A stretch of 64,000 nucleotides of DNA from Nanobdellota archaeon (lineage in GTDB: Archaea; Nanobdellota; Nanobdellia; Pacearchaeales; GW2011-AR1). Positions within the stretch are counted from its first letter, which is position 1, and every line of letters starts with the position of its first letter. Shown piece by piece: positions 2,753-29,254 of the stretch. Made by a program: the position numbers and the translations under genes. The stretch lies in contig JBBTAN010000017.1 in the NCBI GenBank assembly GCA_038044205.1, positions 175,315-239,314 of the forward strand. Reading direction: 5' to 3'. Under the pieces are notes generated by a model that did no database searches, was not told the DNA's origin, and saw only the letters and a list, made by a program, of their open reading frames with translations.

Positions 2753-2764
2753 GAAAGGAAATAT

Positions 2765-3853: not shown

Positions 3854-4667
3854 AATGAAAAAGAAAATATCAATGATAATTTGTTCTTATTGTTTACATA
3901 ATGATTATATAATAAATTTTATTAAATGGAATGAAAATGTATTGCAAGAATTTAATATAGAACTAATAGTAATTTCAGATAAAAATATTATATTTAATAA
4001 TCAAAACTATAAATGTTTTATTTATCCTATAATACATAAACCAATGTCCAAATCAAGAATATTAAATTATGGAATAAAAAATACAACTAATAGGGATATT
4101 ATTTTTTCTTTTGATATAGATATTGTTATTTCAAGAGAAGCTTTAATGAAATCTATAGAGTTAATAGAATCAGGTGTTGGAGTTTCTTTTCAGGTGGGAA
4201 ATATAGATTCATATGATAATATATCTAAATTAGATTGGAAGAAAAAGATAAAGAAGAGACTTGTTGGATATGGTATGACTGGAATGAGTTATTCTGATTG
4301 GGATAAATTGAATGGGTATGATGAGAGAATGTATGGGTGGGGATTTGAAGATACGGATTTACATAAAAGATCTTGTAGAATAATAAAAATGCATAGATTA
4401 ATTGATTATCCTGTATATCATATAAATCATGCTGATAGAACTGTTACAGGCTCATTATTTGAACATAATAATTTAGTTAATGGAGCCATAAGTGAAATGG
4501 GAAGATGGGAATGTAAAAAATGGGGGGAAGAAAAATTTGTAGATTATGTGTTTGAATATAAAGATATAAAACATGACTATATAGATGAGAAATGTAATTG
4601 GAAATGTGATAAATGGATAGAGTGTGGAAAATTAAGTAATTTTCATGGTGATAGATTATTAATATGA
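3828..4667 (+). CDS. GT2/GT7-type glycosyltransferase, tandem paralog of the C-terminal domain of the preceding gene (likely start 3855)
   Basis: FDID; LNGYDERMYGWGFEDTD; collinear similarity to 2765-3853. Confidence 0.8.
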   Translation: MKTMLLSFKMKKKISMIICSYCLHNDYIINFIKWNENVLQEFNIELIVISDKNIIFNNQNYKCFIYPIIHKPMSKSRILNYGIKNTTNRDIIFSFDIDIVISREALMKSIELIESGVGVSFQVGNIDSYDNISKLDWKKKIKKRLVGYGMTGMSYSDWDKLNGYDERMYGWGFEDTDLHKRSCRIIKMHRLIDYPVYHINHADRTVTGSLFEHNNLVNGAISEMGRWECKKWGEEKFVDYVFEYKDIKHDYIDEKCNWKCDKWIECGKLSNFHGDRLLI

Positions 4668-5725
4668 ATAAAATATATCACTATACATTTGATGAAAAAA
4701 GATTAAGTGAATCTCCAATCATAGTTGACCTTGGTTTTAAATATGGTGAATTTTCTATCCCTTTTATAGAAAAATATAAAGGAATATGCTATGCTTATGA
4801 ACCTGCAAAAACTTCTTTTAATATAGCAAAAGAAAAAATAAAATATATGAATAGTATTTTTCTTTTTAATGAAGCAGTATGGAAATATAATGACATAATT
4901 GATTTTTATTCTTTTGATAATTTTCCTCAATCTAATTCTGTATTTAATAGACCACTTCCATTAGAAGATAAATATAAAATAAGGTCAATAACACTTGATA
5001 ATATATTGAAAATGGTTCCTTATGTAGATATATTAAAAATTGATATAGAAGGGGCTGAATGGGAGATATTAAGATTAAGTAAAAAAGAATTATTTAATAG
5101 TGTAGATCAATTAATTATTGAATTTCATTTGGAATTTTCTTGTTTTACTTTAGATAATGCCATTCAATGGTTAAAAGACTTTGGATTTTATATTGTAAGT
5201 AAAGAAGAAGAATGCGAAAATAGAATATCTGTTTATTGTAAAAAATCATCTTCGGAATTGAGAACTAAAACAAATAAATGGTATAGAAAAAATCTAAATA
5301 ATTTTAATTTTAATAATGTATTAAATGCTGGTTGTGGTAGCGATGAAGACTTTGAAGGCGGAACCTATTCAAAAGATTATTTTTCCTATAAAAAATTAAT
5401 AAAATTAGATATAGACAATACCTCAAAAGCAGATATTATTTCTTCTATTGAAAAAACTCCATTTAATGATAATCAATTTGATTTTATTTTTTCTAATTGG
5501 GTTATATATAAAACAGACTATAAAAAATCAATAGATGAATTCTATAGAATCCTACAACCTAATGGATATGTTTGTATTTCTTATTCCCTGCCTGATTTTA
5601 ATGAAGTAAAAAATATAAGAAATAGTTTATTGAATAAATTTAATTTATTCAATTTATATGAATTGGAATATAATCATCAATCTTTAGATAGGAAAGCAGA
5701 AATATTTTTAGGTAAAAAATTATGA
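4664..5725 (+). CDS. FkbM-family methyltransferase fused to a second class I SAM methyltransferase
   Basis: IVDLG, AYEP, LKIDIEGAE (FkbM); VLNAGCG, PFNDNQFDFI, RILQPNG (class I). Confidence 0.85.
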   Translation: MNKIYHYTFDEKRLSESPIIVDLGFKYGEFSIPFIEKYKGICYAYEPAKTSFNIAKEKIKYMNSIFLFNEAVWKYNDIIDFYSFDNFPQSNSVFNRPLPLEDKYKIRSITLDNILKMVPYVDILKIDIEGAEWEILRLSKKELFNSVDQLIIEFHLEFSCFTLDNAIQWLKDFGFYIVSKEEECENRISVYCKKSSSELRTKTNKWYRKNLNNFNFNNVLNAGCGSDEDFEGGTYSKDYFSYKKLIKLDIDNTSKADIISSIEKTPFNDNQFDFIFSNWVIYKTDYKKSIDEFYRILQPNGYVCISYSLPDFNEVKNIRNSLLNKFNLFNLYELEYNHQSLDRKAEIFLGKKL

Positions 5726-7716
5726 TAGAAAAAAGAAATTATGGTAATTATGAAGAGTATGTAGAACATCAGAAAAAGAAAACAATTGATGAAAGTTTGA
5801 GAGCATGGTTGTTACAATGTTTTGAGAAAAGACTTCCTAAATTTATAGCAAGACTATATCATCTATTAGAAGAAAATATAATAAATTTATCAATGAATGT
5901 CCTTTGTGTTGCAGCAAGGATGGGTGAAGAGGTAGCCTCTTTCAATCTAATGGGATTCAAGGCCATAGGAATTGATTTAGTGCCCAATCCACCGCTTGTT
6001 ATAACAGGTGATATGCAGAAAATTCCATTTGAAGATAAATCGTTTAGCATTATATATTGTAATGCTTTAGATCATTGTTTTGATGTTAAATTATTTATGG
6101 CAGAATGCGAAAGAGTATTAAAAAATGATGGAATTGTTATTTTTGATTTCTATCCAAAGAATTATGGAGAGTTTGAGTCTATAAATATATCTTCTGTGGA
6201 TGATATAGTAAATAATACGAATCTAAGTGTAGTAAGGATTTATCAGGATAATGAACTCCCTAAATTATATTCTTGTGAAAATATACAAATTATATTAAGA
6301 AAAGAAAATAAATTAATAGAATTGTTCCAAAAACCTGTTTTATTATTAGTTGCTCATTGGGATGACGAAGTTATATCTGCTGGCGGATCTATATATAGAT
6401 TTGGAAATGGATGGGATATAGTCTCTGTAACAAGTAGGGATAATGTTCATCCAGATTACAGAGAAAAATTTAATAATTTATGTAATAAGAATAATGCTAA
6501 ACCAATTACATTAAATATACCTCATAGAGATTTAAATAATAATAGCACAGAAATAAAAGAAGATATATTGAGAACTGAATTGTTGAAATATATAGATATA
6601 GAAAAATATAGAACAGTAATAACTCATTCTTATGATGGAGATGTAGGAGAACATGTTCAACATAAGAAAATATCTTCTATAGTTCCTAATATATTTCCTA
6701 ATGCTAATATATTTATGTTTTCTCAAAAGCATGGTAGTTATATTAAATTAAAAGAAAACGAAGTAAGTAAAAAGAAAGAATTTATTTCTATTTATCCTAC
6801 TGCACCTGAAGTAAATAAAACAGAGTTTGAATATTTTACCCATTATAGGAAAATAAAAGATTATCCTGATCTTTGTTTTTCTGTTATATCTAATGGCCCA
6901 TATCAAGTATATATTCCATTGTTTATTTATTTCGCAAGTAAGATGTATCCTAAATCAATGATTTATATTTATTCTCACGGAGAACTAAATGAAGATACAA
7001 GGAAATGTATAAATTTGATAAAAGATGTTTGTAATTTCCAAATAAAAAATTTAACTGATTTTACTGATTGTGATATAAATAAATTAGGACCAGATGAATT
7101 TAAAACATTAAGATGGACGATTTATGATAAAGATTGGGAACAATATAATTATTTATATATTGGTGATTTAGATATGTTATTAGTTGGTCAAACTCTAATG
7201 GATTTTCATTTAGACCATTGCAAGAAAAATAATTTATGTTACAGTAATACAACAAGGAAGAAATGTAAGTTTTGTTTAGGAGAGGATACGAGTAAACTAT
7301 CTGGTCTTCATTTCGTAAAAATAAAAGAATATTTTTCTAAAGTTATGTCTAATATAGAGTTATATAGAAATAAATTGAAAAATGGAGAGTTGAAAAATAT
7401 AAATAACGAAAAAACATTGATGAATATAGTAAAAGAATCAGGTTTGTCAATACCAGAGTTTGAAGAAGATTTTTTTGCTTTAAGGCATCATGGATTACAT
7501 TTAAGATCCTTTGATAGTTTAGAACATTTTAGAAATGTTATGATTTCTACTCAATCTTCTTATCCTATTGACTATTTGTTAAAACCAAATTATATTTTAT
7601 TTTTAAATATGATAAAAAGCGAAAGGTGTCAGAAAATAATAAATATATTTAGCAAGTACGAAGAATTTAGTAGACAGATCAATAATTTAATTTCTATTTG
7701 TAAGGAAATTAAATGA
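5722..7716 (+). CDS. Three-domain fusion: SAM methyltransferase + PIG-L/LmbE-like deacetylase + GT-A-like domain
   Basis: VLCVAARMGEE/GIDL/NALDH; LLVAHWDDE...ITHS...GEHVQH; YIGDLDM and LSGLHFV. Confidence 0.75.
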   Translation: MIEKRNYGNYEEYVEHQKKKTIDESLRAWLLQCFEKRLPKFIARLYHLLEENIINLSMNVLCVAARMGEEVASFNLMGFKAIGIDLVPNPPLVITGDMQKIPFEDKSFSIIYCNALDHCFDVKLFMAECERVLKNDGIVIFDFYPKNYGEFESINISSVDDIVNNTNLSVVRIYQDNELPKLYSCENIQIILRKENKLIELFQKPVLLLVAHWDDEVISAGGSIYRFGNGWDIVSVTSRDNVHPDYREKFNNLCNKNNAKPITLNIPHRDLNNNSTEIKEDILRTELLKYIDIEKYRTVITHSYDGDVGEHVQHKKISSIVPNIFPNANIFMFSQKHGSYIKLKENEVSKKKEFISIYPTAPEVNKTEFEYFTHYRKIKDYPDLCFSVISNGPYQVYIPLFIYFASKMYPKSMIYIYSHGELNEDTRKCINLIKDVCNFQIKNLTDFTDCDINKLGPDEFKTLRWTIYDKDWEQYNYLYIGDLDMLLVGQTLMDFHLDHCKKNNLCYSNTTRKKCKFCLGEDTSKLSGLHFVKIKEYFSKVMSNIELYRNKLKNGELKNINNEKTLMNIVKESGLSIPEFEEDFFALRHHGLHLRSFDSLEHFRNVMISTQSSYPIDYLLKPNYILFLNMIKSERCQKIINIFSKYEEFSRQINNLISICKEIK

Positions 7717-8270
7717 TAAATATAAAAGAATTAGTTGATGGTGCGAATAAAAATAAAGAATGGTTAAGGTATCATCCAAGGGTATTTTCTCACCCAGGAG
7801 ATATTGTTGATTTAGGTTGTTTAGTATGGGATTGGTCTCAACCTTTTATTGGGAAAAAAAGAGTAATAGGTGTTGATCCACAAGAAAATCATGTTCCTCA
7901 AGGATTTGAATTGTTTAAAGGCATGGTAGGGAATTTCACCGGAACAGCTAAAGTGTTACTTGGGAAACAATGTTCTGCTTATGACCTAAAAGGAGAAAGT
8001 TTAGTAGAAGTGATAACCTATGATGATTTTATACTAAAATATAAAATAAATTCTTTATCTTTATTAAAAATGAATATAGAAGGTGCGGAGTATGATTTAA
8101 TAATTAGATGGAAAACTCCTCCGGCAGACCAATTGATTATTTCTTTTCATCATCATAATGGAAAATTTAACAATAAAGCAACTCAATATATGATTGATCT
8201 TTTATCTGAATGGTATGACTATACCTGTATTTGTGAACAATATGCTTGGTATTTATTTTTGAGGAAATAA
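7713..8270 (+). CDS. FkbM-like methyltransferase
   Basis: IVDLGC, IGVDP, LKMNIEGAEY, ISFH. Confidence 0.75.
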   Translation: MINIKELVDGANKNKEWLRYHPRVFSHPGDIVDLGCLVWDWSQPFIGKKRVIGVDPQENHVPQGFELFKGMVGNFTGTAKVLLGKQCSAYDLKGESLVEVITYDDFILKYKINSLSLLKMNIEGAEYDLIIRWKTPPADQLIISFHHHNGKFNNKATQYMIDLLSEWYDYTCICEQYAWYLFLRK

Positions 8271-9139
8271 TTATGAAAATATTGATAATTATAGATGAAT
8301 ATGGTTGGGCTTTTGAATTTGTCGCCAGAGGAATAGAAAAATATTCCAAACATCAAGTAGATTATGTTAGAGCAAGAGATATTGATGATAAATATAATAA
8401 TTATGATATTTATTATGTTTTGAATAACGCTAATTATATGGATTGTAAATATAAGCCAAGTAAAGAAAGAACTATTTGTGGGGTTAGAGGAGAGACTAAT
8501 CCAGATACTGTTGATCCTAATAATTTCGCTGCACTTCAGATAGTGAATAAAAAGATATTTGATAGATATTTAGAGAAATATCCTAATAATAAGAATATGT
8601 TTTATATTAGGAATGCTGTAGATGGGAATGAATTTGTTCCTGCTGAGGAATTGGGAAGTAATGTAGGTTGGTCTGGTGATAAGACCAAACCATGTAAAAG
8701 ATTTAATTTATTAAGTAAAATATATAATGGGAAAGTAATAATAAAAGCAGATCATGGTAGTAATTTCTTTGTAAAAGAAAGGACAAGAAAAGATCAGGTT
8801 GAATTCTATCAATCCCTTTTTGTTTATATTCATCCTTCTAACTTTGGAGAGGGAATGTCTCAAACCATAGTTGAAGCAGCAGCCTGTGGATTACCAATTA
8901 TTTCTTGTGATATTGGCGACAATAGAAATATAATGAGTAATGAGTGGTTTATTGCGAAGGAACCAGACGAAAAATCAATAAAAGAGATAAATGAGAAGAT
9001 AGAAGTATTAGAAAGGAATAAGGAATTTGCTATTCATGTAGGGAAAGAGAATAGAAAGAGATTTGATGAAGGTAACTGGTGTTGGAGCAAAAGAGCAAAA
9101 GAATTTGATAATCTTTTTGAAACAGTAAAAGGAAAATAA
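8246..9139 (+). CDS. GT4-family glycosyltransferase (likely start 8273)
   Basis: EGMSQTIVEAAACGLPII (E-x7-E), NAVD. Confidence 0.85.
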   Translation: MVFIFEEIIMKILIIIDEYGWAFEFVARGIEKYSKHQVDYVRARDIDDKYNNYDIYYVLNNANYMDCKYKPSKERTICGVRGETNPDTVDPNNFAALQIVNKKIFDRYLEKYPNNKNMFYIRNAVDGNEFVPAEELGSNVGWSGDKTKPCKRFNLLSKIYNGKVIIKADHGSNFFVKERTRKDQVEFYQSLFVYIHPSNFGEGMSQTIVEAAACGLPIISCDIGDNRNIMSNEWFIAKEPDEKSIKEINEKIEVLERNKEFAIHVGKENRKRFDEGNWCWSKRAKEFDNLFETVKGK

Positions 9140-9141
9140 AA

Positions 9142-9825
9142 ATGAATGACTATGAACCATACGTTTGTGAAGCCATAGAAAAGATAATAGAGCCAGGTTG
9201 GGTCTGTGCCGATGTAGGGGCCAATGTAGGGCAGATAACTACTCTTTTAGCTAACCTCGTAAAAGAAAAAGGAAAAGTCATAGCCTTTGAGATACTCCCT
9301 GATAATATAAATGAATTAAAAGAAAATATAAAAAATTATAGTAATGTAGTAGTTGAGAATTTAGCAATATCTAATACAAATGATTTTATTCCTATTTATC
9401 CAAGTAGTAATGGTGGTTCTAAAGAATGGAATATATTAGGCTATGACGTTAGAGGAATAAAAACAAATAAATTCATTGAAGTAAAAGCATCAACTATGGA
9501 CGAATATTTCAAAACCTTTACCCAATTAAATTTCGTCAAGATAGATGTAGAAGGAGCCGAATTCAAAGTAATTGAAGGAATGAGTAATATATTGCAGAAA
9601 TTAAGACCATATATTATTGTTGAATTTCATGAAGAAGAAGGATGGGAAGGAAGATTTAATATATTAAAATATGATTATTCTTTATTTGGTCTTTATACCC
9701 ACGGAAATAAAATATTTGATTGGGTAGATGTAAATCATACAAGAATATACCATTGTTTACTAGTTCCTAATGAGTTAAAAGAAAATATAAATGCTAAACT
9801 TCGGAGTAAAAAAGATGAGAGTTGA
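9142..9825 (+). CDS. FkbM-family methyltransferase
   Basis: DVGANVG, AFE, VKIDVEGAE, IVEFH. Confidence 0.9.
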   Translation: MNDYEPYVCEAIEKIIEPGWVCADVGANVGQITTLLANLVKEKGKVIAFEILPDNINELKENIKNYSNVVVENLAISNTNDFIPIYPSSNGGSKEWNILGYDVRGIKTNKFIEVKASTMDEYFKTFTQLNFVKIDVEGAEFKVIEGMSNILQKLRPYIIVEFHEEEGWEGRFNILKYDYSLFGLYTHGNKIFDWVDVNHTRIYHCLLVPNELKENINAKLRSKKDES

Positions 9826-10033
9826 ATCAGCATTTAATCCTTATTATAATTTTACTGATGTATCATCCATTTGTAAAATAATAAAAGTAGATGGTGTTGA
9901 AGGCGGGGTCATTGGATTGAGCAAAAGAATAAAATTAGGTGATGAAATCAGAGTAAGATTCAATGGAATTGTTAAAAAAGTAATTATTTCTTCCATTGAT
10001 TCTAAATATATAAACTGCACAACAAAAGATTAA
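9791..10033 (+). CDS. Hypothetical protein
   Basis: ORF overlapping the upstream gene; GGAG before an internal ATG. Confidence 0.4.
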   Translation: MLNFGVKKMRVESAFNPYYNFTDVSSICKIIKVDGVEGGVIGLSKRIKLGDEIRVRFNGIVKKVIISSIDSKYINCTTKD

Positions 10034-11167
10034 TTATTCTTTTCTTATTTTTATTCTCAAAGAATTATCAATATATTTATCATTTATCACAACTAAGTAT
10101 CCTCCACCACCTGCACCAGATAATTTATACCCAAGCACTTTTTCTCTATATTGTCCTAATAATTCTAATATATCTTTATTTACCATATTGGGAAACATAG
10201 CAATTTGCGCTTTAAATGATTTCCTAACATATTCTCCAAATTTAATTATATTTTTTTCTTTTATTGCTTCCCAACACCTATCTGTAACATCAGATAATAT
10301 ATTTACTTTTTCTTTATTTATATCAGTATTCAATAAAGGATCAAACGATTCTATCCTCGGATTTAATGGAACTAAATATATAGAATCCTCTATAAAGGAT
10401 AAAATATCATTGTCTAATATATTTTTAAAATCAATTGGCCAATAATTTCCATTATATTCTATTTTTGTTAAACCTGGATATATTACTCCAATAGCGTCCT
10501 GCGAGCCAGATATAAATTTTTTACCAGGTTCATTTTCTAACCTAAATGCCAATTTAGCTAATTTTTCTTGTTCCATGTTAGGTAATCGACTACAAAAGAA
10601 TTCTCTTAAAGCATTCCTTGTACTTGAGGCCATTCCGCTTCTATGATTAAATTCTATTGTAGGTTCAAGCGATATAACTACTACGGAGCCTCTACAGTGA
10701 CTTGAAACAAAAGGCTGGTCTAACCAACCACCTGCTAAATCTAAACGGAATGGAAGGGTGCAAACACCCCTTATTGACGTGCTAGATCTTATAGGTAAAT
10801 GAGATTTAGGCATCCTGTCTAAAACTATATATTTTATTTTATTTTCTTCGCATAATTTCTTTTTTTCTGGATAATTCCCTTCTTTATTTACAATTAAAAT
10901 ATCAGGTTTTATTGTTTGAAGCAATGGTTTAAAATCCAAGAATCCATTTCCTGGTGATATATATGCTTCTTTGACAAATTTTATTGATTGAATTATATAT
11001 AATCTTTCATCTTGAGTATATACTGGTGGTCTTCCTTTTAGATCATGTATTGTTTTATCAGAACCAAGAGCAACATATAGGTCTCCGTAGGATGATGCTT
11101 GTTCAAGGAAGGCTATATGGCCGGAGTGAGTAAAGTCAAAACAACCTGATACTAAAACTTTTGGCAT
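10034..11167 (-). CDS. Cytidylyl/adenylyltransferase-like domain fused to a GHMP-family sugar kinase (HddA-like)
   Basis: SGCFDFTHSGH (HxGH) and SSTSIR; PFRLDLAGGWLD, SGMASS, GSQD, KLSGAGGGG; GGAG SD upstream of ATG 11167. Confidence 0.85.
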   Translation of the reverse strand: MPKVLVSGCFDFTHSGHIAFLEQASSYGDLYVALGSDKTIHDLKGRPPVYTQDERLYIIQSIKFVKEAYISPGNGFLDFKPLLQTIKPDILIVNKEGNYPEKKKLCEENKIKYIVLDRMPKSHLPIRSSTSIRGVCTLPFRLDLAGGWLDQPFVSSHCRGSVVVISLEPTIEFNHRSGMASSTRNALREFFCSRLPNMEQEKLAKLAFRLENEPGKKFISGSQDAIGVIYPGLTKIEYNGNYWPIDFKNILDNDILSFIEDSIYLVPLNPRIESFDPLLNTDINKEKVNILSDVTDRCWEAIKEKNIIKFGEYVRKSFKAQIAMFPNMVNKDILELLGQYREKVLGYKLSGAGGGGYLVVINDKYIDNSLRIKIRKE

Positions 11168-11217
11168 GATAGAACTCCATTTCAAATAAAATAAATACAT
11201 TTCTATTGCCTATTTCT

Positions 11218-11324: not shown

Positions 11325-11630
11325 TTGAATATGAAGGAATATGTAAAAAGTCAATTAGAAGAAATATTTAAATATAAATGGATTGAATCAGAAAAAGAAG
11401 GACATGATATTGGTGAAGATGCTGCTGCAAGGAAGTGGATAGAGTTATATGCTGAGAAATTTCGTCAAGAATACGATGAAATGGTAAATAGAATAATAAA
11501 TGAAGTATCTGATAAAATAGATTGTAATTGTATCCAAAGTAAGGATAGAATAAGGAAAATAATAGAAGAATTCTGTGTTATTTTTATTCGAGAAGAAATA
11601 AAAGGGAACAAGAAAATAGATTTGCTTTAG
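11325..11630 (+). CDS. Small protein with a DUF4032-like motif
   Basis: EEIFKYKWIESEKEGHDIG...AARKWIELYA; TTG start after AGGAG. Confidence 0.55.
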   Translation: MNMKEYVKSQLEEIFKYKWIESEKEGHDIGEDAAARKWIELYAEKFRQEYDEMVNRIINEVSDKIDCNCIQSKDRIRKIIEEFCVIFIREEIKGNKKIDLL

Positions 11631-11674
11631 TTGGAAGAAAGTCAGAATTTTGCTGTAGAATAACAGAATTCGTA

Positions 11675-12217
11675 GTGGAATTTGGCAAAGGAGAAAATGA
11701 AATGCGGAGAAAAGATTATCGTTTAGGTGACGTAATTTACAATTGGTATGAATTGATTGACAAGCCAGATATTATGGAACAATTAGATATTAAAGATTAT
11801 CTGATTGATAGATTTAAAAATATAAAATATTGGATTGATAATTCACCTCTAATTGAAGATAATAAAAAATTATTATATGAATCAGGTTGGGGGAAGTTGG
11901 AGATGCTTCGTAGAGTGCAGTTGAAATATGGTTGGGAAAAAATAAATTTATTATTGGCTGTACATAGATTGGATTTTAGGAATGCTTGTCTTCATTTACT
12001 TAAAAAGAAAAATGATCAGATAGCAAGTGTTATTGATGATACTAATTCAGCTAAGATGGCGTATAGTGATTTAGATCAGGTTAAATTATTAAAAAGTTTG
12101 CTTGAGGCTGCTTCTGTTATAGTTGATTCCATGCGTAGAAATAATATTACTATACCTGGCTCTATTTTAACTTTAGCTGCTTCTATTTGTGCAGAAAAGG
12201 AGACTGTAAATGGATAA
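11675..12217 (+). CDS. Hypothetical protein
   Basis: ORF with SD; overlaps the start of the radical SAM gene. Confidence 0.6.
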   Translation: MEFGKGENEMRRKDYRLGDVIYNWYELIDKPDIMEQLDIKDYLIDRFKNIKYWIDNSPLIEDNKKLLYESGWGKLEMLRRVQLKYGWEKINLLLAVHRLDFRNACLHLLKKKNDQIASVIDDTNSAKMAYSDLDQVKLLKSLLEAASVIVDSMRRNNITIPGSILTLAASICAEKETVNG

Positions 12218-13337
12218 TAAAATGAATTTTAGAATAAAAGAAAAAATAGGTGATGGTTGTTTTAATCCTTATGCATTAAGTATAGGGAGAAATGGAATGT
12301 TGAAATTAGAAGAAGTTCTATGGGAAGTAACTTCTAAATGTAATAAAAATTGTCATTATTGTGGATCGAAGAATGTTTTGAATAAAAAAGAATTGACTGA
12401 TGACGATAAAATAAAAATAGCAAAGCAGTTAGCTGATTATGGAGTCAAAGAAGTAGTGTTGTCGGGTGGGGAGCCAGGCTGTTTAGATACCAATACGCTA
12501 AAAGATATAATAAGGGTATTGAGAAATGGAAATTGTATAGTAAAAGTTGTAACTAATGGAAAAATATTTGAACATCAAATGGATTTTAGTCATTTTGATG
12601 CTATAGGTTTATCTGTAAATGAAATTAAAGATATAGAATTTTGTAAAGATAAAAGAGGAGTAAATACTGATAATTTTACTATTATTACAAATTTTGGCAC
12701 TCATAATATATGGGATTTTGACAAGTTGTATAATTTTGCTATGAATTATAATTGTTGGCAAGTTCAGTTAACTATGGGTGAACTGATGTTAAATGCTGAT
12801 GGGATTAAATATTTAAAAAATAAAATAAAAGATACCAATAAATGTTTTCAATTTAATCCAAGTGAAGGATATACATCTAATAAAATTATTTTAGCTGATA
12901 ATTTACAGGATGGCTATAACTGCACTGTTGGAATTAGGTCGTGTGGAATTACCTATACTGGAGAAGTTATAGCTTGTTTATCTGAAAGAAGCTATAGCGA
13001 AAAATTAAATATATATGGTAAGTTACCAGAGGATAGTATTGAAAATATCTGGGAGAATAAATTTAAGGATATTAGATTTAAGTGTAATAGAAAATGTTGT
13101 AGGGATTATATTAAATATCCTGATGTTGATAAAATTGTTGGAGATAAAGAATATGAGACTCTATCTTATCCTATTTCTCCAAATGATCCTGTTTACATTT
13201 ATGGAGTTCAAACTCCAAGCGATGTTGGTGACGATGAGGAGCCTATTGGAGGTGTAATGATTTACGGAGTAGCTGGTCCTAAAAATAATAAAAAAGTAGT
13301 AATGATGTATGGGGTATTTAGAAAAAATAAAGAATAA
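12210..13337 (+). CDS. Radical SAM/SPASM-twitch enzyme, splicease (PlpX)-like, with a C-terminal tail carrying three XYG motifs
   Basis: WEVTSKCNKNCHYCGS (CxxxCxxC), LSGGEP, VTNG, WQVQLT, CTVG..CGITYTGEVIACLS; tail VYIYGV/VMIYGV/VMMYGV. Confidence 0.8.
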   Translation: MDNKMNFRIKEKIGDGCFNPYALSIGRNGMLKLEEVLWEVTSKCNKNCHYCGSKNVLNKKELTDDDKIKIAKQLADYGVKEVVLSGGEPGCLDTNTLKDIIRVLRNGNCIVKVVTNGKIFEHQMDFSHFDAIGLSVNEIKDIEFCKDKRGVNTDNFTIITNFGTHNIWDFDKLYNFAMNYNCWQVQLTMGELMLNADGIKYLKNKIKDTNKCFQFNPSEGYTSNKIILADNLQDGYNCTVGIRSCGITYTGEVIACLSERSYSEKLNIYGKLPEDSIENIWENKFKDIRFKCNRKCCRDYIKYPDVDKIVGDKEYETLSYPISPNDPVYIYGVQTPSDVGDDEEPIGGVMIYGVAGPKNNKKVVMMYGVFRKNKE

Positions 13338-13368
13338 TTTTTATTTATTTTATTATTAGAGAGAAAAT

Positions 13369-13698
13369 ATGGCGAAAGTATACGTACATAAAAAAGATGA
13401 TCTTTCTAGTTCTAATGAATATTATGAGGATAAGAAAGGAATCTATTATTATACAAGTGATTCAAGTTCATCTGAAGAAGACCCTGATGACGAAGAAGAA
13501 TGGTCAAGTTCATCAGAAGAAGACCCTGATGACGAAGAAGAATGGTCAAGTTCATCATCTGAAACATCTGAAGAAGAAATAGAAGAAACATCATCTAATG
13601 AAGAAAAACAAGTAAAAGAAAAGAAAATAGAAAAGGAACAGGTTCCTTTAAAAGAAGAAAAAGATAATAGAACTGTGTTCGAAGCACTGGAGTTTTAA
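13369..13698 (+). CDS. Acidic Ser/Glu-rich orphan ending in VFEALEF
   Basis: First member of the shared C-terminal motif array. Confidence 0.75.
   Translation: MAKVYVHKKDDLSSSNEYYEDKKGIYYYTSDSSSSEEDPDDEEEWSSSSEEDPDDEEEWSSSSSETSEEEIEETSSNEEKQVKEKKIEKEQVPLKEEKDNRTVFEALEF
13462..13556 (+). repeat. 42-bp in-frame tandem repeat (~2.3 copies; SSSSEEDPDDEEEW)
   Basis: Units 13462-13503 and 13504-13545 differ at one position; partial third copy follows. Confidence 0.95.
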
Positions 13699-13711
13699 AA
13701 GGAATAATTTA

Positions 13712-14059
13712 ATGAAGCACTGGAGTTTAAAAAACAATGATATATTGCCAACACCAAAAGTAAATGTTAATTTGCCTATTTATAATAATCCAAAATGTCA
13801 GTATAGATACAAGGGTGAAGGGATGTTAGATTTTACTAATTCTGGATTAGAAAAGAAAGATAATAGTCCATTTAATGAAGTTATAAGTAAAGGCTATATA
13901 TTTGATAGTAATGAATTTAATTATTCTTGGTCAGATAATAAACTTATATTTGATTTAATCAAATTAAGTAAGTTGGTCAAATGTAAGAAAGAAAAGAAAA
14001 TAATTAAGCAGGTTGATAAAAAAGATAATAATAATATTTTTGATGCGTTGGAGATTTAA
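13712..14059 (+). CDS. Orphan ending in IFDALEI
   Basis: Shared C-terminal motif. Confidence 0.7.
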   Translation: MKHWSLKNNDILPTPKVNVNLPIYNNPKCQYRYKGEGMLDFTNSGLEKKDNSPFNEVISKGYIFDSNEFNYSWSDNKLIFDLIKLSKLVKCKKEKKIIKQVDKKDNNNIFDALEI

Positions 14060-14061
14060 TT

Positions 14062-14460
14062 GTGAATGAAAATGAAATAGATTTATATAATAAAGATTTA
14101 GTAAAGATTAATAAGGAATTTGAAAAATCATATATTTATTATGATAAAAAATTAAAAGAATCAGGTGTATATGATGAGAAGGTAAAAGAACAGAAACAAA
14201 TTGCGAAATTAGAAAAAATAAAGATGGAAGAAAAAGAGAAAGAAAATATTGAAATATATAATAAGAAGAAACAGGAGAAAGTGGAAATATTTCTAAAACA
14301 AAATCCAAAGGTAATCAATCCAACAAAGATAGTAAATTATGTAGATATTTTTGAAAGTTATGAAAGGGAACAGGAGCAGATAAAAGAAAAAATAAAATTA
14401 GAAAAATTCAATAAGAATAGACATAAAAGAGTTTCAGTTTTCGAGTCGTTGGAGTTCTAA
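14062..14460 (+). CDS. Charged coiled-coil-like orphan ending in VFESLEF
   Basis: GTG start 8 nt after GGAG; shared C-terminal motif. Confidence 0.75.
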   Translation: MNENEIDLYNKDLVKINKEFEKSYIYYDKKLKESGVYDEKVKEQKQIAKLEKIKMEEKEKENIEIYNKKKQEKVEIFLKQNPKVINPTKIVNYVDIFESYEREQEQIKEKIKLEKFNKNRHKRVSVFESLEF

Positions 14461-14462
14461 AC

Positions 14463-14804
14463 ATGCCAGACAATGAAATAGATGAAGAAATTACTCCAAT
14501 AGAAGGAGAAGATGTTTCTTTTTTAATTTCTATACAATCCGATAGTTTATATAAAGAAAAAATACAAACTAATCATAGAGAAAATTCTCTAAAAGAAAAG
14601 TTAAATGCGATGTATAAAAAATCAAATGAAACAATTAAGCAGGCGCAAAAAGAAGATGATGAATTTGTTAATAAAAGAAATAAGCAAAAGCAAAAAATAA
14701 TGAATGATCTTTTATCTGAATTTAGAATGGAACAGGATAAAGAAATAGAGAGAAGGAAAAGGATGAAAGCAGAAGGAACAATTTTTGAATCTTTGGAGAT
14801 TTGA
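14463..14804 (+). CDS. Orphan ending in IFESLEI
   Basis: Shared C-terminal motif; SD lies within the previous gene's LE codons. Confidence 0.75.
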   Translation: MPDNEIDEEITPIEGEDVSFLISIQSDSLYKEKIQTNHRENSLKEKLNAMYKKSNETIKQAQKEDDEFVNKRNKQKQKIMNDLLSEFRMEQDKEIERRKRMKAEGTIFESLEI

Positions 14805-15023
14805 ATGTATAATAACATGACAATGATAGAGTTTGAGCCAGAGGAAGAAAAATATACAGGTCCATCTATAGTTCCAGATGAAGCACTTGATATTATTTTC
14901 AATGATAAATTGACAGTAAAAGAAAGAATAAAATTATTAGATGAATTGCGAGAAAAAGAAGAAAAAGAAAATAAAAATATAGATATAACTGATAATAATA
15001 TATTTGGTTCTTTGGAGATTTAA
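14805..15023 (+). CDS. Orphan ending in IFGSLEI
   Basis: Shared C-terminal motif. Confidence 0.75.
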   Translation: MYNNMTMIEFEPEEEKYTGPSIVPDEALDIIFNDKLTVKERIKLLDELREKEEKENKNIDITDNNIFGSLEI

Positions 15024-15025
15024 TT

Positions 15026-15508
15026 ATGGGATATTTTCTGCAATCTATAGCTGATGAGACAGAGGAAAATATTGGAAATATGGATTCCCCTGGATATTTA
15101 ATGAGTAGCCCTTATGTCCCAGAAAATATAAAAATATTAAATGAAAAAGAATTAGAAAAATTAATAGAATTGCATGAGAAGGGAGTAATTAGTAGTCAAA
15201 CTTTATTTGATGGAGCAGGTATTGATTATAAAAAAGAGGTAGAGCAGTTACAATTAGAAAAAACAATATTTTCTACAGATAATAAGGAAATAGAAGATTT
15301 AATAAAAGTAAAATTAGAGGAATTGAAGTGGAAGTCAGGAGAGATAACTAAAGAGGATGTAGAGCATGTCTTTGAAGTTGCGGAGAAGGAAATAAAAAAT
15401 AAACAGGTTCAAATAAAAGAAAATAAAAGTATTCAACCTATAAGCCAAATAAAACCTTGTACAATTATAATAGATAATTATTCTATTTTCGACGCGCTGG
15501 AAATATAA
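15026..15508 (+). CDS. Orphan ending in IFDALEI
   Basis: Shared C-terminal motif. Confidence 0.75.
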   Translation: MGYFLQSIADETEENIGNMDSPGYLMSSPYVPENIKILNEKELEKLIELHEKGVISSQTLFDGAGIDYKKEVEQLQLEKTIFSTDNKEIEDLIKVKLEELKWKSGEITKEDVEHVFEVAEKEIKNKQVQIKENKSIQPISQIKPCTIIIDNYSIFDALEI

Positions 15509-15557
15509 ATAATTTATTTTTTATTAAAGAACCGGAATCTTCTAAAGGAGAAATTAA

Positions 15558-15887
15558 ATGAAAAAATTAGATGATACTGTTTATATTAGACCAGATGATT
15601 ATTTGAAGAAAGTTATTAAAACAAAGAAACCAAAGTTTTTATATGATAAAATTCCAGAAGGTGTAAGAGAACTTATTATAAAGGATACTCCAGTTGCTAC
15701 TTCTTTCAAAAAATTAGATGATGGAACTATAGTTGATAACAATACAGGACAGAAATATTTACGTAAAAAGACAAAAGCACAAAAAGATAAAGAAAAGGCT
15801 GACAGGAAAGATGAATATGAGCGTTCTCAAAAAAGGGCTGCGGTAGATGATGATTTTAGCATGACCGCTCATTTCTATGGTGATTAA
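15558..15887 (+). CDS. Hypothetical basic protein
   Basis: AAGGAG SD and ORF. Confidence 0.65.
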   Translation: MKKLDDTVYIRPDDYLKKVIKTKKPKFLYDKIPEGVRELIIKDTPVATSFKKLDDGTIVDNNTGQKYLRKKTKAQKDKEKADRKDEYERSQKRAAVDDDFSMTAHFYGD

Positions 15888-16043: not shown

Positions 16044-18470
16044 ATGTCTAGGAAACCAAGTCTTTATAGGAATCTCTCTGCTGCAACCTGCGAAAAAGAC
16101 GTTGAGAATGCTTGGCGTTCTTTTATTCAAGAAACATATAATGATGGTGCTTTCACCAGTCCCCACAAGTGTGATGGATTTCTTGAAAGTAAAGATATTA
16201 AAATGCTTTGTGAATTTAAGTACGACCAGAATATGAAAGAAGATAAAGATCTTCTTCCTATTGTTGGTCAGTCTATTTATTATATAAATAAAATGATTAA
16301 ATCAGGTGATAAGATTCCTAATGTTGTTTTTATTGGTGATAAAAATGAATGTATGGTTTTTCCCGCCTCTATTCTAATCGCTTACGCACAAAAGAATTAT
16401 GCTTTTTCATTGTCTCCTTGCGATGCAGGGAAAGATATTATTCTTATGTCAGATCTTAAGAATGATGTAAATATAAATTCTGTTGTTTTTACTATTGAAC
16501 AAGGATTCAAGTGGGAGACTGTTGATTATTTTATTAAGAGACAGGTGAAGCAGGTTAAAGCTGATCTTCCTATTACTCCTAATACTTTGCCAAATGTTTA
16601 CGAATATTGGTGCAAGAATGTAATGAAGGGTAATATGTCTGACAATGAAATAATTGAAGTATTCTTTAAAGTTCTAACTAAACCTCAAGAATGCTATCCC
16701 CATCCAAAGAAAGAAAATATATTGGTAGTTGGTGGTAATGAAATTAAAATTAGTAAGAAGGGGTTTAATGGATTTTTTAGTTTGTATAAAGAGACTCACA
16801 ATCCTATTGAATTGAGGGAATTGACTGCTAATAAAGACAGGTTGGTTGTGGAGATGAAGCGTCGTAGGAATGGAGAGTATTTTACTCCTGCTGATTGGGT
16901 CAACGAAGCCCATAAGATGCTCACAGAGCATCTGGGAGAGAATTGGAAGGAAGAGTATGTTGTTTGGGACTGTTCTTGTGGAACTGCTAACCTGACAAGA
17001 GATTACAAGTTTAAAGAATTATATTTAAGTACTTTGGGACAGACCGATATAAATATTATAGAGGAGGCTGGATATAGTCCAGAAGCAACTAAATTCCAAT
17101 TTGATTTTTTGAATGATGACCTGTCTAAATTACCTGATGGACTCAGGTGGTCTCTTGATAGTGGAAAGAAATTTGTTTTTCTTAATAACCCTCCGTATGG
17201 AACTGCTAATGATTTTGGAGCAAAAGGAACGGAAAAGTCTGGTATTGCTTCAAATACAATGATAAATAAACAGATGAAAGAAAATAATATTGGAGAATCA
17301 AGTCAGCAATTGTATGCCCAATTTATGTATCGCATAATGGATGTAGTTAAAAAATATAAGATAAAAAATTCAGTTATGGGTACGTTTAGCAATGTATTGT
17401 TCATGTGTGGAGAATCTTTTGAGGGATTCCGTAAAAATATAAATATGGGCTATGTAGATGGAATGATTTTTAAAGCATCTCATTTTTCTGATGTATCAGA
17501 TTCATGGGGGATTGCTTTTACTGTTTTTAAATCTTTAAATTTTGTTAATTCTAAAAATTTTATAGTAAAAATAAAAGATTATAGTGATGAAGGTCGTATC
17601 GTAACTGTCATAGAGAAAGAATTATATAATCTTGATGGAATTGAATCTGCTTCTAAATGGGTTCGTGAACCAAATAAAGGTATTAAAACTTTGGATTATC
17701 CACAGATGACTAATGCTACATGTATTAAACCTGATGGGAGAGGACGTATTTGTTGTGATTCGTTAGGTTATTTTTTAAGTAATGCTAACAATACTTATGA
17801 TAATCTTACATCTGTTGCTTTATTTTCATCTTGTCCAGCTAAAGCTAATGGTCTTTCTATAACTAAAAATAATTTTGAACGTTGTATTGTTTTATATTCT
17901 GCACGTAAACTTATTGAACCAAATTGGATGAATCAAAAAGATGAATATATGGTTCCTAATACTAATCATCCTGATTATCAACAATTTGTAAATGATTCTA
18001 TTATATATTCTTTATTTAATTCAGCAAGTAATCAATCCTCTTTGAGACAAATAGAATATAAAAATAAAAAATGGGATATTGTTAATAATTTCTTTTTTAT
18101 GTCTATTAAAGAAATTCAGGATTTAGCTATTGAATATAATTTTAATGATTTATATAATGATACTATTTCCCATCCTGGAGATAGATACGTATATAATCAA
18201 CTAAATAATATTATTTTATCTCCAGATGCTAAAGAAGTTCTTGATATGGCGAGAAATTTGATTATTGATTCTTTTCAGTCTAGGCAGGCTGCAAGTAATA
18301 TAAAACCAGAGATGCACCTACAAGCATGGGATGCTGGTTGGTATCAGATAAAGAACGGGATATTAAAGGAACAGTTTAAGGACAAGTATAAAGAATTTAC
18401 TGATTTATATAAATCTTTTAGTGATAGACTTATATTGTTAGTGTATGAGTTGGGATTTTTGAAGAAATAG
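16044..18470 (+). CDS. Fused nuclease-N6-adenine methyltransferase (Type IIG/IIC restriction-modification-like)
   Basis: N-terminal E..V...CDGFL...CEFK (PD-(D/E)xK-like); GEYFTP, VWDCSCGTANL (motif I), NNPPY (motif IV). Confidence 0.8.
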   Translation: MSRKPSLYRNLSAATCEKDVENAWRSFIQETYNDGAFTSPHKCDGFLESKDIKMLCEFKYDQNMKEDKDLLPIVGQSIYYINKMIKSGDKIPNVVFIGDKNECMVFPASILIAYAQKNYAFSLSPCDAGKDIILMSDLKNDVNINSVVFTIEQGFKWETVDYFIKRQVKQVKADLPITPNTLPNVYEYWCKNVMKGNMSDNEIIEVFFKVLTKPQECYPHPKKENILVVGGNEIKISKKGFNGFFSLYKETHNPIELRELTANKDRLVVEMKRRRNGEYFTPADWVNEAHKMLTEHLGENWKEEYVVWDCSCGTANLTRDYKFKELYLSTLGQTDINIIEEAGYSPEATKFQFDFLNDDLSKLPDGLRWSLDSGKKFVFLNNPPYGTANDFGAKGTEKSGIASNTMINKQMKENNIGESSQQLYAQFMYRIMDVVKKYKIKNSVMGTFSNVLFMCGESFEGFRKNINMGYVDGMIFKASHFSDVSDSWGIAFTVFKSLNFVNSKNFIVKIKDYSDEGRIVTVIEKELYNLDGIESASKWVREPNKGIKTLDYPQMTNATCIKPDGRGRICCDSLGYFLSNANNTYDNLTSVALFSSCPAKANGLSITKNNFERCIVLYSARKLIEPNWMNQKDEYMVPNTNHPDYQQFVNDSIIYSLFNSASNQSSLRQIEYKNKKWDIVNNFFFMSIKEIQDLAIEYNFNDLYNDTISHPGDRYVYNQLNNIILSPDAKEVLDMARNLIIDSFQSRQAASNIKPEMHLQAWDAGWYQIKNGILKEQFKDKYKEFTDLYKSFSDRLILLVYELGFLKK

Positions 18471-19366: not shown

Positions 19367-19876
19367 TTATCTTTTTAGATTTATGTAGAATGGTCTTTTT
19401 GTATATATTATATAATTGAATTTATCTTTTATTTTTTGAATATTTTCGGGATAGAATATTTCTATATTTTCTAGACATGACATGATTTTTAAATCGTCTT
19501 CTGCCCAGTGTGTAATTCCATTATTTTCATAATCTTTATTTCTTCCTGATCCAATAATTTTTACATTTAATTTTTCATGATTGATATATGTTCTTAATAT
19601 TTCAAATGGTCTATATAAAACAAATGGAGTTATTGAATATACAATTGGTATTTTACCCGATAGAGACAATCCAACTGCTATTGACATCATTGTGATTTCT
19701 GATGACCCTACATTAAAAAACCTATCAGAATAAGAATTTTTAATATTATCCCACATTCCGTAACCTACATCTCCTACTAATATAAAAATATCTTTATTTT
19801 TCCCCATTTCATTGTGAAGTAAATATGAGAATGTTTTACGCATTTTCGCATAATCTCCTAGCTGTAAAATATTCAT
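19367..19876 (-). CDS. Transketolase-like protein, pyrimidine-binding (C-terminal) subunit
   Basis: LVGDVGYG, RFFNVGSSE, PIVYSITPF, RPFE, GITHWAEDD. Confidence 0.85.
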   Translation of the reverse strand: MNILQLGDYAKMRKTFSYLLHNEMGKNKDIFILVGDVGYGMWDNIKNSYSDRFFNVGSSEITMMSIAVGLSLSGKIPIVYSITPFVLYRPFEILRTYINHEKLNVKIIGSGRNKDYENNGITHWAEDDLKIMSCLENIEIFYPENIQKIKDKFNYIIYTKRPFYINLKR

Positions 19877-20507
19877 TTTCTGACAATATATGATAATGTT
19901 GATCTAGTCCACTAGAGAATGGAAGTTCTTTTATATTTTCAATTTTATGTATAATAATTTTCTCGTAAAATGATAATAATCTATTTTCTAAATAATTAAT
20001 ATTTATTTTTTTATATGCCGATAAACCATTTACTATAACGTTGATATTTATATTTAAAATATTGTATTCTTTAATAAATGCTAATGATTCCCATATTGAT
20101 CCTTCATAACATTCTCCATCAGATATTAAACAACATATTTTATATGGTGTAGATAATGCGTATCCTATAGCAATAGGTAGTCCAATTCCTAAACTTCCAG
20201 TGGTACACCATATTTGATGTTCAGGATCAAAGCAAGGATGAATCCCATGTTTTAGATATAATTCTTCTGCATTGTAGTTAAAAAAATGTTCTAATATTAC
20301 ATATAATGCTAATCCGGAATGTCCGTTAGATAGTATAAATTTTTCATTTTCATTTTTATTGATAAATATATTATATATGATAGGTAGAGATCCTAAACAA
20401 CTACTTAAATGAGATAATTTATATTTATAACTTATCTCCAATATTCTTTGTTTAAGTTTTATTATTTCATTTAATTTTATATATTGTTTATATTCTGTTT
20501 TATCCAT
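19836..20507 (-). CDS. Transketolase-like protein, TPP-binding (N-terminal) subunit
   Basis: SHLSSCLG, LSNGHS, TGSLGIGL, SDGECYEGSIWE. Confidence 0.9.
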   Translation of the reverse strand: MDKTEYKQYIKLNEIIKLKQRILEISYKYKLSHLSSCLGSLPIIYNIFINKNENEKFILSNGHSGLALYVILEHFFNYNAEELYLKHGIHPCFDPEHQIWCTTGSLGIGLPIAIGYALSTPYKICCLISDGECYEGSIWESLAFIKEYNILNININVIVNGLSAYKKININYLENRLLSFYEKIIIHKIENIKELPFSSGLDQHYHILSENEYFTARRLCENA

Positions 20508-28986: not shown

Positions 28987-28987
28987 A

Positions 28988-29254
28988 ATGGAAAGTAATA
29001 AAGAAAAAATTATTGTTAGCTGGACAGATAATGGTAGAATTGTAGAAAAAGAGATATCTGTAGATGTGAGTACGAATTATTTCAATGAAAAAGTTGTTAA
29101 ATATAGAGGCGGTTATCGGTCATTAGACTATAGAAAAGGATTCTATATTCTTTATGTAGGAGATGTAGTCAATTTTAGTTTAGAAGCATTCGATTTAATT
29201 GGAGAAAAAGAAAAATATATAAATTATTCTATTTTTGGGGCATTAGAAATATAA
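28988..29254 (+). CDS. Orphan ending in IFGALEI (dispersed member of the C-terminal motif family)
   Basis: Same C-terminal motif as the genes at 13369-15508. Confidence 0.7.
   Translation: MESNKEKIIVSWTDNGRIVEKEISVDVSTNYFNEKVVKYRGGYRSLDYRKGFYILYVGDVVNFSLEAFDLIGEKEKYINYSIFGALEI

Follow-up and report, generated by a model that had tools for sequence, protein, structure and literature searches.

A phage-encoded radical SAM enzyme with repeated Tyr-Gly motifs, candidate sites of self-modification, in its C-terminal tail

The stretch of DNA analysed here (the window; 64,000 nucleotides, positions 175315-239314 of contig JBBTAN010000017.1, C17, of assembly GCA_038044205.1, G000) contains on its forward strand, at 12210-13337, the gene of a radical S-adenosylmethionine (rSAM) enzyme, whose C-terminal tail repeats a short motif centred on Tyr-Gly (YG). 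With moderate confidence, we propose that the protein is a fusion of enzyme and substrate which would modify the tail YG sites that it carries itself, either in cis or from one copy to another, with splicing-type chemistry as the most likely reaction. The rSAM core would generate a 5'-deoxyadenosyl radical, and this radical would attack the Tyr of each tail YG site, the attacked tail being either the enzyme's own or that of a neighbouring enzyme copy; the reaction would most likely be an excision of tyramine, as in the spliceases.

According to the available text of the papers cited, spliceases such as PlpX are rSAM/SPASM enzymes that excise tyramine at X-Y-G sites, with Met or Leu as the natural X (PMC11414181, PMC10533398, PMC11626197). 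The same text describes them as needing no leader and as acting, by means of ten-residue splice tags, e.g., GAVAAGYGVVFPG, on disordered segments as well as on whole proteins (PMC10533398, PMC11414181, PMC11626197), as requiring an activating helix from a Y protein or a leader (PMC11414181), and as yielding products that inhibit serine and cysteine proteases (PMC11414181, PMC10533398, PMC11626197, PMC11002830).

Organization of the gene and its product

The gene and the parts of its product are situated as follows:

12210-13337, +: gene of the rSAM/reduced-SPASM enzyme with YG-repeat tail; open frame of 375 aa (P0001) with matches to PF04055, PF13353 and PF13186
12321-12368, +: WEVTSKCNKNCHYCGS, residues 38-53, located in the translation
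12339-12362, +: CxxxCxxC (C44, C48, C51), ligating the [4Fe-4S] cluster that cleaves SAM; unvaried in all 67 aligned homologues (Cys in 100% of each column)
12687-12707, +: TNFGTHN family signature, residues 160-166; N161, G163, H165 and N166 invariant
12756-12773, +: WQVQLT strand motif, residues 183-188; W183, Q184, Q186 and L187 invariant; common to TIGR04103/TIGR03913-like enzymes
12921-13100, +: reduced, probably twitch-like SPASM domain with C238, C245, C256 and C297, from the Pfam match and cysteine conservation
12945-12983, +: GITYTGEVIACLS, residues 246-258, located in the translation
13122-13334, +: C-terminal tail, residues 305-375 (71 aa, after CCRDYIKYP), predicted to be disordered from its low model confidence
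13191-13208, +: tail motif 1, VYIYGV, residues 328-333; candidate site I330-Y331-G332, from position check and family consensus
13254-13271, +: tail motif 2, VMIYGV, residues 349-354; candidate site I351-Y352-G353, on the same grounds
13299-13316, +: tail motif 3, VMMYGV, residues 364-369; candidate site M366-Y367-G368, on the same grounds

The open frame and all motifs quoted in an initial annotation, which had been made from the DNA letters, were found exactly where that annotation had placed them, including the three YG sites of the tail. The start codon is ambiguous between ATG 12210 (AAGGAG 7 nt upstream) and ATG 12297 (GGGAG 7 nt upstream), the latter being the position where many homologues start; the tail is the same from either ATG. 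In a Pfam scan, the 375-aa product exceeds the thresholds of Radical_SAM (PF04055; 46.8 bits, cut-off 29.5), SPASM (PF13186; residues 238-297, 27.2 bits, cut-off 21.5) and Fer4_12 (PF13353). The TNFGTHN signature, the most conserved family pattern by automatic choice, was used for the pattern scans for relatives of the enzyme reported below.

Concerning the SPASM domain, C238, C256 and C297 are kept in 100% and C245 in 93% of the family alignment, the former three belonging, together with the residues marked in the list, to those invariant among the 67 aligned members; further cysteines at position 296 and at the equivalent of position 300 are kept in just 48% and 54%. The full seven-cysteine SPASM motif for two auxiliary clusters was looked for in the family alignment and is absent. 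As only four cysteines are conserved after the SAM-cluster triad, the alignment suggests a reduced SPASM domain of the twitch-like form, which would be enough for one auxiliary cluster.

In an AlphaFold model of the protein (67-row alignment), the predicted local distance difference test (pLDDT) is mostly above 90 in the core and below 50 for residues 310-323 and 326-375. The predicted core fold is closest to peptide-modifying rSAM/SPASM enzymes, the top Foldseek matches being SuiB, PqqE, CteB, anSME and SkfB, with viperin and MoaA close behind. The best structural matches, the peptide and protein modifiers SuiB, PqqE, CteB and anSME, are found with E-values of 1.6e-11 to 2e-9 and TM-scores of about 0.5, at just 14-17% identity to the phage core. 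These four enzymes possess full SPASM domains and catalyse different reactions, and SuiB, PqqE and CteB work with separate domains or proteins that bind the leader (RiPP recognition elements, RRE; RiPP, a peptide made on ribosomes and modified after translation).

The YG-repeat tail

The tail contains 6 Pro, 12 Asp+Glu and 8 Lys+Arg among its 71 aa; the initial description of a Pro/acidic tail of about 60 aa thus holds for the prolines but not for the charge, which is mixed. The repeats exceed chance: The open frames of 80 aa or more in the 1.0-Mb assembly, 387,936 aa altogether, contain 33 matches to [VILMFTA][VILMFYTAS]Y[GAS]V, and the enzyme tail is the sole place with two or more matches within 60 aa.

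Across the aligned homologues, the YG tail motif emerges as a trait of the family. For the tail survey, 123 homologues were anchored on the equivalent of C297; three lacked the anchor and one had a tail of 9 aa, and the remaining 119 metagenomic sequences, whose tails have at least 25 aa, were counted. These tails are 42-186 aa long (median 87) and contain 230 YG, compared with 41.9 expected from their composition. Conservation of the YGV repeats in homologues, on which the initial annotation depended, is evident: At least one YG is present in 110 of the 119 tails and at least two in 85, YGV is found in 104, and YG or Y[AS]V in 115. Up to 6 motif copies occur per tail, and the family consensus, given as present in 1-6 copies, reads P-x-V-hyd-hyd-Y-G-V-x-x-P (hyd, hydrophobic residue); the tails are otherwise hypervariable and unalignable. 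Over 177 sites, the residues preferred upstream of the Tyr are P at -5 (55), V at -3 (88), M/V/I at -2 and M/V/L at -1, and those preferred downstream are G, A or S at +1 (125, 32 and 18), V at +2 (130) and P at +5 (51). In a subclade of 19 sequences, V333, Y336, G337 and V338 of the tail are invariant.

Among 24 relatives on IMG/VR viral contigs, 23 carry Y[GAS]V in the tail, the exception being the most divergent one (L024, 277 aa). An AlphaFold model of a member of the family (P0032, built on the 19-row subclade alignment) likewise has a tail with pLDDT below 50, and in neither this model nor that of P0001 is a docked pose of the tail present. Complex prediction of the core (residues 26-310) with the tail (311-375) gave ipSAE values of 0.02 and 0.01, which are used neither for nor against any role of the tail, and an NCBIfam scan of the tail alone gave no match.

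Phage setting and distribution of the family

The initial annotation regarded the gene as phage-encoded, and several features support its assignment to a very large groundwater phage: a large-terminase match at 49805-51646, an open reading frame (ORF) of 3550 aa directly 3' of the terminase gene (51694-62346, +; no Pfam or PHROG match), HNH/RRXRR genes, the absence of cellular marker genes from the window in Pfam and PHROG scans, and the viral relatives and clusters described below. The window is AT-rich (about 26-36% G+C) and also encodes helicase and methylase genes. Its contig contains nine tRNA genes including duplicates (Lys-ttt three times, Leu-taa twice), and a record of the same protein exists for a contig 499,814 bases long. 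The assembly is a 1.0-Mb bin, 77.7% complete and filed in a phylum of 0.5-1.7-Mb genomes; a phage and a small-genome cell of equal G+C content may have been binned together in it. The part of the window from 11600 to 15600 is present in four DNA sequencing runs of one groundwater study, and no RNA runs with this part are listed.

A second rSAM/SPASM gene exists in the same assembly (G000:C65:10679-11641, -; locus L025, 1441-3357). This ORF of 638 aa scores 67 bits with TIGR04103 over profile positions 8-321, possesses the full SPASM cysteine pattern and an N-terminal part that is methyltransferase-like by eye, and has no YG tail.

A word-indexed search for relatives of the phage enzyme yielded 92 homologues with 32-50% identity, all of them metagenomic, and a profile search 200 homologue clusters at 90% identity, at least 120 of them listed. 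Family members are situated on contigs of up to 500 kb, and a pattern scan found the 24 IMG/VR relatives, whose viral contigs measure up to 373 kb. In the ESM Atlas, the nearest clusters have a viral share of 89-100%, and a pattern scan of 185,579 GTDB species-representative genomes found one locus, on a 67.7-kb contig of a metagenome-assembled genome. A scan of IMG/VR for close relatives with the single protein found nothing, and tblastn against 50,697 deposited phage genomes returned only four weak N-terminal matches. The enzyme family is almost entirely viral. Since it is large and almost confined to viral contigs, it constitutes a recurring piece of large-phage biology and no one-off.

Relation to curated enzyme families

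The phage enzyme is outside every curated family, yet homologous over its whole core to TIGR04133 (rSAM_w_lipo) and to TIGR04103/TIGR03913-like enzymes. Most NCBIfam matches cover the N-terminal core only, and the C-terminal half alone matches just TIGR04133 (25 bits) and WgkB (19.5 bits). The nearest relatives are the splicease-type families named in the initial annotation and not other rSAM families: among the NCBIfam models, TIGR04133 alone matches all 67 members and has the best E-value (3.6e-19), and TIGR04103 matches 59 of 67 (best E-value 9e-15); hhalign of the phage family with 12 TIGR04133-type sequences gave a probability of 99.8% (E-value 2e-27, 264 columns); and the TIGR03913/TIGR04103-like protein P0262 aligns end to end (positions 14-272 of the phage-family hidden Markov model (HMM), 103.5 bits). 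In the latter alignment, WELTLACNMKCGHCGS and LWQPQLS face WE.T..CN.NC.YCGS and WQ.QLT of the phage family, and WQVQLT aligns also with WQINLT/WQIQ of P0139. The splicease motifs that the initial annotation had named are true at least of splicease-like proteins, because P0262 carries WELT..CN..C.HCGS and LWQPQLS opposite the family motifs.

For comparison, two enzymes of the assembly's phylum (213-216 bits to TIGR04133) were taken, one of which was used to search 1.84 billion representatives, and 95 of the 150 best representative matches were labelled with NCBIfam. Among these 95, P0190, P0157 and P0271 pass the TIGR04133 cut-off, and about 35 fall not far short of it. A TIGR04103/TIGR03913-like label applies to ten, none of which reaches the cut-off (190-314 bits), a mycofactocin-like and an AhbD-like label to one protein each; the best models of P0139, which has two rSAM domains, are also TIGR04103 and TIGR03913 (318 and 300 bits). 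Scored with the phage-family HMM, the TIGR04103/03913-like single-domain proteins reach 92-117 bits, true TIGR04133 proteins 73-83, the mycofactocin-like protein 67 and the AhbD-like one 54. In a quick maximum-likelihood tree (55 rows, 345 columns, rooted on two distant proteins), the phage family is monophyletic (support 100) and sister to the TIGR04103/03913-like group, with TIGR04133 as a separate clade (support 98).

YG motifs in related bacterial systems

The TIGR04133/TIGR04134 "radical SAM with lipoprotein" pairs of Bacteroidota and their relatives provide the nearest curated enzyme model, and their partner proteins contain the same hyd-hyd-Y-G-V/S-P site. A metagenome scan with a TIGR04133 alignment yielded 80 loci, 24 of which were examined (23 at 43% identity or more, and L056 at 45%, which replaced three short records). 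In 20 of these 24 loci, a lipoprotein-like ORF with at least one YG is situated immediately upstream of the enzyme, the YG usually standing just after the lipobox (examples of the YG stretches are RIVVMYGVRPPGQ, IRLMYGVRPPVP, VRVMYGSPPARF and PKMYGPPDFRAEYGVPHATY). Eight of the upstream YG ORFs were compared with TIGR04134: Three pass its cut-off, one lies just under it, and four are unrelated proteins that still possess the motif. The partner of TIGR04133 enzymes appears to be defined by its site and not by its protein family. In this system the substrate-like protein exists apart from the enzyme as an exported lipoprotein, mostly with 1-2 sites just after the lipobox, and the enzyme retains a full SPASM domain, whereas the phage sites are situated on the enzyme's own C-terminus and the phage enzyme has neither signal peptide nor lipobox.

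The upstream lipoproteins of L050, L051, L052 and L072 (94-110 aa) have no TIGR04134 match and contain one near-identical V/L-M-Y-G-V-R-P-P site each.

A putative minimal two-gene YG system outside Bacteroidota is constituted by the pair at L032 (1468-2815, -; in genome G006, which belongs to the window's phylum and to a small-genome bacterium of the size known from the candidate phyla radiation, CPR): A TIGR04133-like enzyme (213 bits) directly follows an 82-aa membrane peptide, which contains MVAYGP and MVDYGP and ends SPMVAYGPGPMVDYGPMPP. Furthermore, the YG motif is fused to the enzyme in 4 of the 150 representatives. P0146, which is TIGR04133-like, has three V-x-V-Y-G sites in an N-terminal extension, and P0204, P0252 and P0267 have a hydrophobic segment followed by C-terminal, Cys-rich CD-YG-xPP repeats; P0252 and P0267 are labelled TIGR04103-like, and P0204 groups with them in the tree. 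As in the phage protein, enzyme and YG repeats thus form one polypeptide in these four, whereas P0204, P0252 and P0267 possess an apparent membrane-spanning segment (by eye), the repeats of P0146 are N-terminal, and all four are bacterial and belong to different tree clades.

An enzyme and its substrate would be expected to leave just such a pattern, with the same Y-G site in separate partners that are unrelated to each other and in fusions of independent origin. The idea of an enzyme-precursor fusion, put forward in the initial annotation, gains independent support, because in related bacterial enzymes YG is found in separate neighbouring proteins or in other fusions. A comparable architecture is known from the borosins (OphMA, omphalotin), in which a RiPP-type enzyme carries the core peptide fused to its own C-terminus, where either the same enzyme molecule or the other half of the dimer modifies it; the borosin enzymes, which occur in fungi and bacteria, are N-methyltransferases that depend on SAM but are not of the radical SAM kind, and they are neither viral nor equipped with a Y-G motif.

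Candidate reactions and roles of the tail

The spliceases (PlpX/PlpY/PlpA, PcpX, RhaX, RcsX, RasX; TIGR04103, IPR026482) combine an rSAM domain with a SPASM-type domain, as does the phage enzyme, and the motifs WE.T..CN..C.(H/Y)CGS and WQ.QL(T/S) are common to the phage family and TIGR04103/03913-like proteins. Splicease sites are X-Y-G with X being Met, Leu or another hydrophobic residue, and frequently have Val or Leu as the next residue and Pro in the flanks, so far as the available text of the splicease papers describes them, and the phage tail sites are alike; the residues at -1 of the phage motifs (M, V and L are commonest) and their flanking Pro resemble splicease tags. The three X-Y-G sites of the phage enzyme are, however, present in cis, compared with the separate precursor of the spliceases. 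Further differences from the spliceases are that the phage enzyme is without Y protein, leader and separate precursor, retains four SPASM cysteines, is encoded by a phage, and that the Gly of its sites can be replaced by Ala or Ser.

Several observations weigh against tyramine splicing of the tail by its own enzyme. Concerning the tails, 9 of the 119 are without YG; those of L019, L020-22, L007 and L001 contain only Y-A-V or Y-S-V sites, compared with the canonical X-Y-G of splice sites; and Val stands at +2 more consistently than in the partner proteins of bacteria, a feature that would also fit a Tyr-x-Val cross-link. One enzyme with few sites is, because it is stoichiometric, an unusual arrangement. 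A conserved Y-protein or activating helix, needed by known spliceases according to the available text of PMC11414181, was not found beside the enzyme in the 24 viral loci. Six SPASM cysteines are kept in the TIGR04133 set and four in the phage family, and because of this reduction the phage chemistry may differ from that of TIGR04133, for which (with TIGR04134) a literature search found no published function or chemistry.

Concerning classification, the membership in a splicease family claimed by the initial annotation was not borne out, since the scores with TIGR04133 (48.3 bits, cut-off 425), TIGR04103 (rSAM_nif11_3; 42.4 bits, cut-off 725, residues 35-117 only) and TIGR03913 (GDL motif peptide-associated rSAM/SPASM maturase; 28.6 bits, cut-off 592, exactly 591.75) all amount to about a tenth of the cut-offs or less. 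The N-terminal core, moreover, scores similarly with models of other enzymes, i.e., moaA_archaeal (48.7 bits, cut-off 325) and viperin (46.8 bits, cut-off 180). In the phylogeny, the sister relation to TIGR04103/03913-like enzymes has a support of 90 in the Shimodaira-Hasegawa-like approximate likelihood ratio test (SH-aLRT) only; the stem of the phage family is very long, at 1.82 changes per column, and the approximately unbiased (AU) test does not reject a grouping with TIGR04133 (p 0.32). No TIGR04103-like protein in the tree passes the TIGR04103 cut-off. Since the tree sample was chosen by similarity to one small-genome bacterial enzyme (that of L032) and is without an experimentally characterised splicease, the placement constitutes a lead and no result.

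The YGV repeats might not be substrates but short linear docking motifs, i.e., beta-strand "stickers" between Pro-rich spacers, the radical chemistry taking place on another molecule; the tail would in this case anchor the enzyme on another protein of phage or host, for instance a component of the virion, a ring-shaped hub or the true substrate. Such a role would agree with a tail that is disordered and without docked conformation in both AlphaFold models, with a copy number (0-6) and spacing that vary freely, as in multivalent linear motifs, and with the replacement of Gly at +1 by Ala or Ser; the lack of fixed gene neighbours would allow for a substrate encoded elsewhere. We nevertheless consider docking rather unlikely, given that the same Y-G site recurs in separate partners of homologous bacterial enzymes, including mutually unrelated lipoproteins, and has been fused independently to such enzymes at either end, the pattern of an enzyme-substrate pair. 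Furthermore, Tyr is the fixed centre of the motif, whereas a docking strand would accept Phe or Leu, and no other protein of the 1-Mb assembly has clustered copies.

If the tail is the substrate, the chemistry may still be other than tyramine splicing, e.g., a Tyr-Gly-Val cyclophane (a triceptide-type C-C cross-link from the Tyr ring to the Val C-beta), an epimerisation or another Tyr-centred radical modification. The position +2 matters for three-residue cyclophanes, and it is Val in 130 of the 177 sites; the acceptance of Y-A-V and Y-S-V variants, the SPASM domain reduced to one cluster and the great divergence of the family from any characterised enzyme point in the same direction. Cyclophane models, however, match worse than splicease-type ones: The YhhB-type cyclophane synthase model (NF041707) scores 28 bits, below its cut-off of 445, and is outside the 25 families matched by most members. 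Full-length HMM alignments favour TIGR04103/03913-like and TIGR04133 proteins, and M, V and L at -1 match the X of known X-Y-G splice sites, such that a reaction of this other kind appears clearly unlikely.

Self-modification of the tail, a loss of 135 Da and protease inhibition, all part of the initial annotation, are putative. Blocking of host or defence proteases would, speculatively, be one option for the phage. In its strongest form, the enzyme would excise tyramine from its tail and thereby turn into a multivalent alpha-ketoamide protein, a covalent, reversible trap for host or defence proteases during infection; this we hold to be decidedly doubtful. If true, such a warhead would provide phages with a counter-defence of a new kind, and no spliceotide from a virus and no natural radical SAM enzyme that splices itself would have preceded it.

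Should the tail undergo the proposed modification, phages would carry a ribosomal beta-amino-acid/ketoamide chemistry so far known solely from bacterial natural-product pathways, and this in its most compact form, one gene without leader, helper protein or separate precursor. The enzyme would then represent a single-component tool for installing reactive ketoamides in proteins and would offer a first way to learn what the uncharacterised TIGR04133/TIGR04134 pair of gut Bacteroidota, a system with the same motif, does; it would also raise the question of the host process targeted by the phage. A published description of a phage-encoded splicease-like enzyme or of a natural rSAM-YG-repeat fusion was not found in searches that, apart from the papers cited here, covered listings and abstracts, and the splicease survey of Scott et al. 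(Chem 2022) may already list such. In the available text of the spliceotide paper PMC11002830, the word "phage" belongs to phage display in the reference list and not to a phage splicease.

Neighbouring genes and the downstream tag array

Clustering covered every ORF of 60 aa or more in the 24 IMG/VR loci and in 4-22 kb of the window. Across these loci and the window, no partner gene family recurs besides the enzyme itself, the next most widespread family being found in 7 loci of one subclade; the genes immediately up- and downstream vary from locus to locus, and no other ORF with two or more YG-type motifs exists in the 24 loci. In the window, ORF 11675-12217 overlaps the ATG 12210 start by 8 nt. 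Neither this ORF nor those downstream have a Pfam family above cut-off or YG repeats, such that no neighbour of the TIGR04134 lipoprotein type is present. Co-function of the enzyme with ORF 11675-12217 and the downstream ORFs, as envisaged in the initial annotation, is unsupported, because neither is conserved beside the enzyme in the 24 loci. As a conserved helper or RRE partner, ORF 11675-12217 was rejected; it has no Pfam or PHROG match and no counterpart in these loci.

Downstream of the enzyme gene, the window contains a set of small ORFs with a common C-terminal tag:

13369-15508, +: six tandem small ORFs (72-160 aa) ending in [IV]F[EDG][AS]LE[FI]-stop (IFxALEI tag), which share nothing else
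about 28979-29254, +: seventh ORF with the same C-terminal tag, just after an RNase HII gene, 13.5 kb away

Arrays of ORFs with a common C-terminus are absent from the 24 related loci; a scan of IMG/VR with the pattern IF[DE][AS]LEI-stop gave 16 single matches and no arrays, about 13 being expected by a rough chance estimate; and a profile search with the tag proteins found only the window's own proteins. For these reasons, the tag array is probably a separate feature specific to this phage, and a link to the enzyme is unlikely. That the six tagged proteins are the substrates, in the style of a multi-precursor RiPP cassette, is highly improbable, for although the six co-oriented genes follow in tandem from 32 nt 3' of the enzyme gene with the conserved terminal motif alone in common, and all 7 tagged ends of the 1.0-Mb assembly fall in the window, no array with a shared C-terminus exists in the related loci, the tag is absent from the conserved features of the enzyme family, the seventh gene stands 13.5 kb off beside RNase HII, and the tags have no Tyr-Gly and no relatives outside this phage. 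The IFxALEI tag resembles the C-terminal peptides with which T4/RB69-type phage proteins bind the clamp, and it might itself serve to bind a hub.

Further genes of the window

After the tag array, an ORF of 109 aa (15558-15887, +; no family match) ends ...MTAHFYGD, with a single Tyr-Gly near its C-terminus. It is followed by an ORF of 808 aa (16044-18470, +) without Pfam or PHROG match, in which FLNNPPYG was read by eye, an NPPY-type motif typical of N6-adenine DNA methyltransferases. The enzyme gene is flanked by two blocks of sugar-nucleotide and glycan-modifying genes, at 914-11200 and 19367-23313, which contain a DegT aminotransferase, an FdtA-like gene, several glycosyltransferases, five FkbM-type methyltransferases, a PIG-L deacetylase, an epimerase and a split transketolase-like pair. 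The glycan-block cytidylyltransferase, for which the Pfam match covers that domain only, has an apparent kinase part as well and bears the PHROG name bifunctional heptose kinase/adenylyltransferase. Finally, a complete gene of the TnpB/IS605 OrfB type (24424-25683, +), with HTH_OrfB_IS605, OrfB_IS605 and Cas12f1-like TNB domains, is situated within the phage genome.

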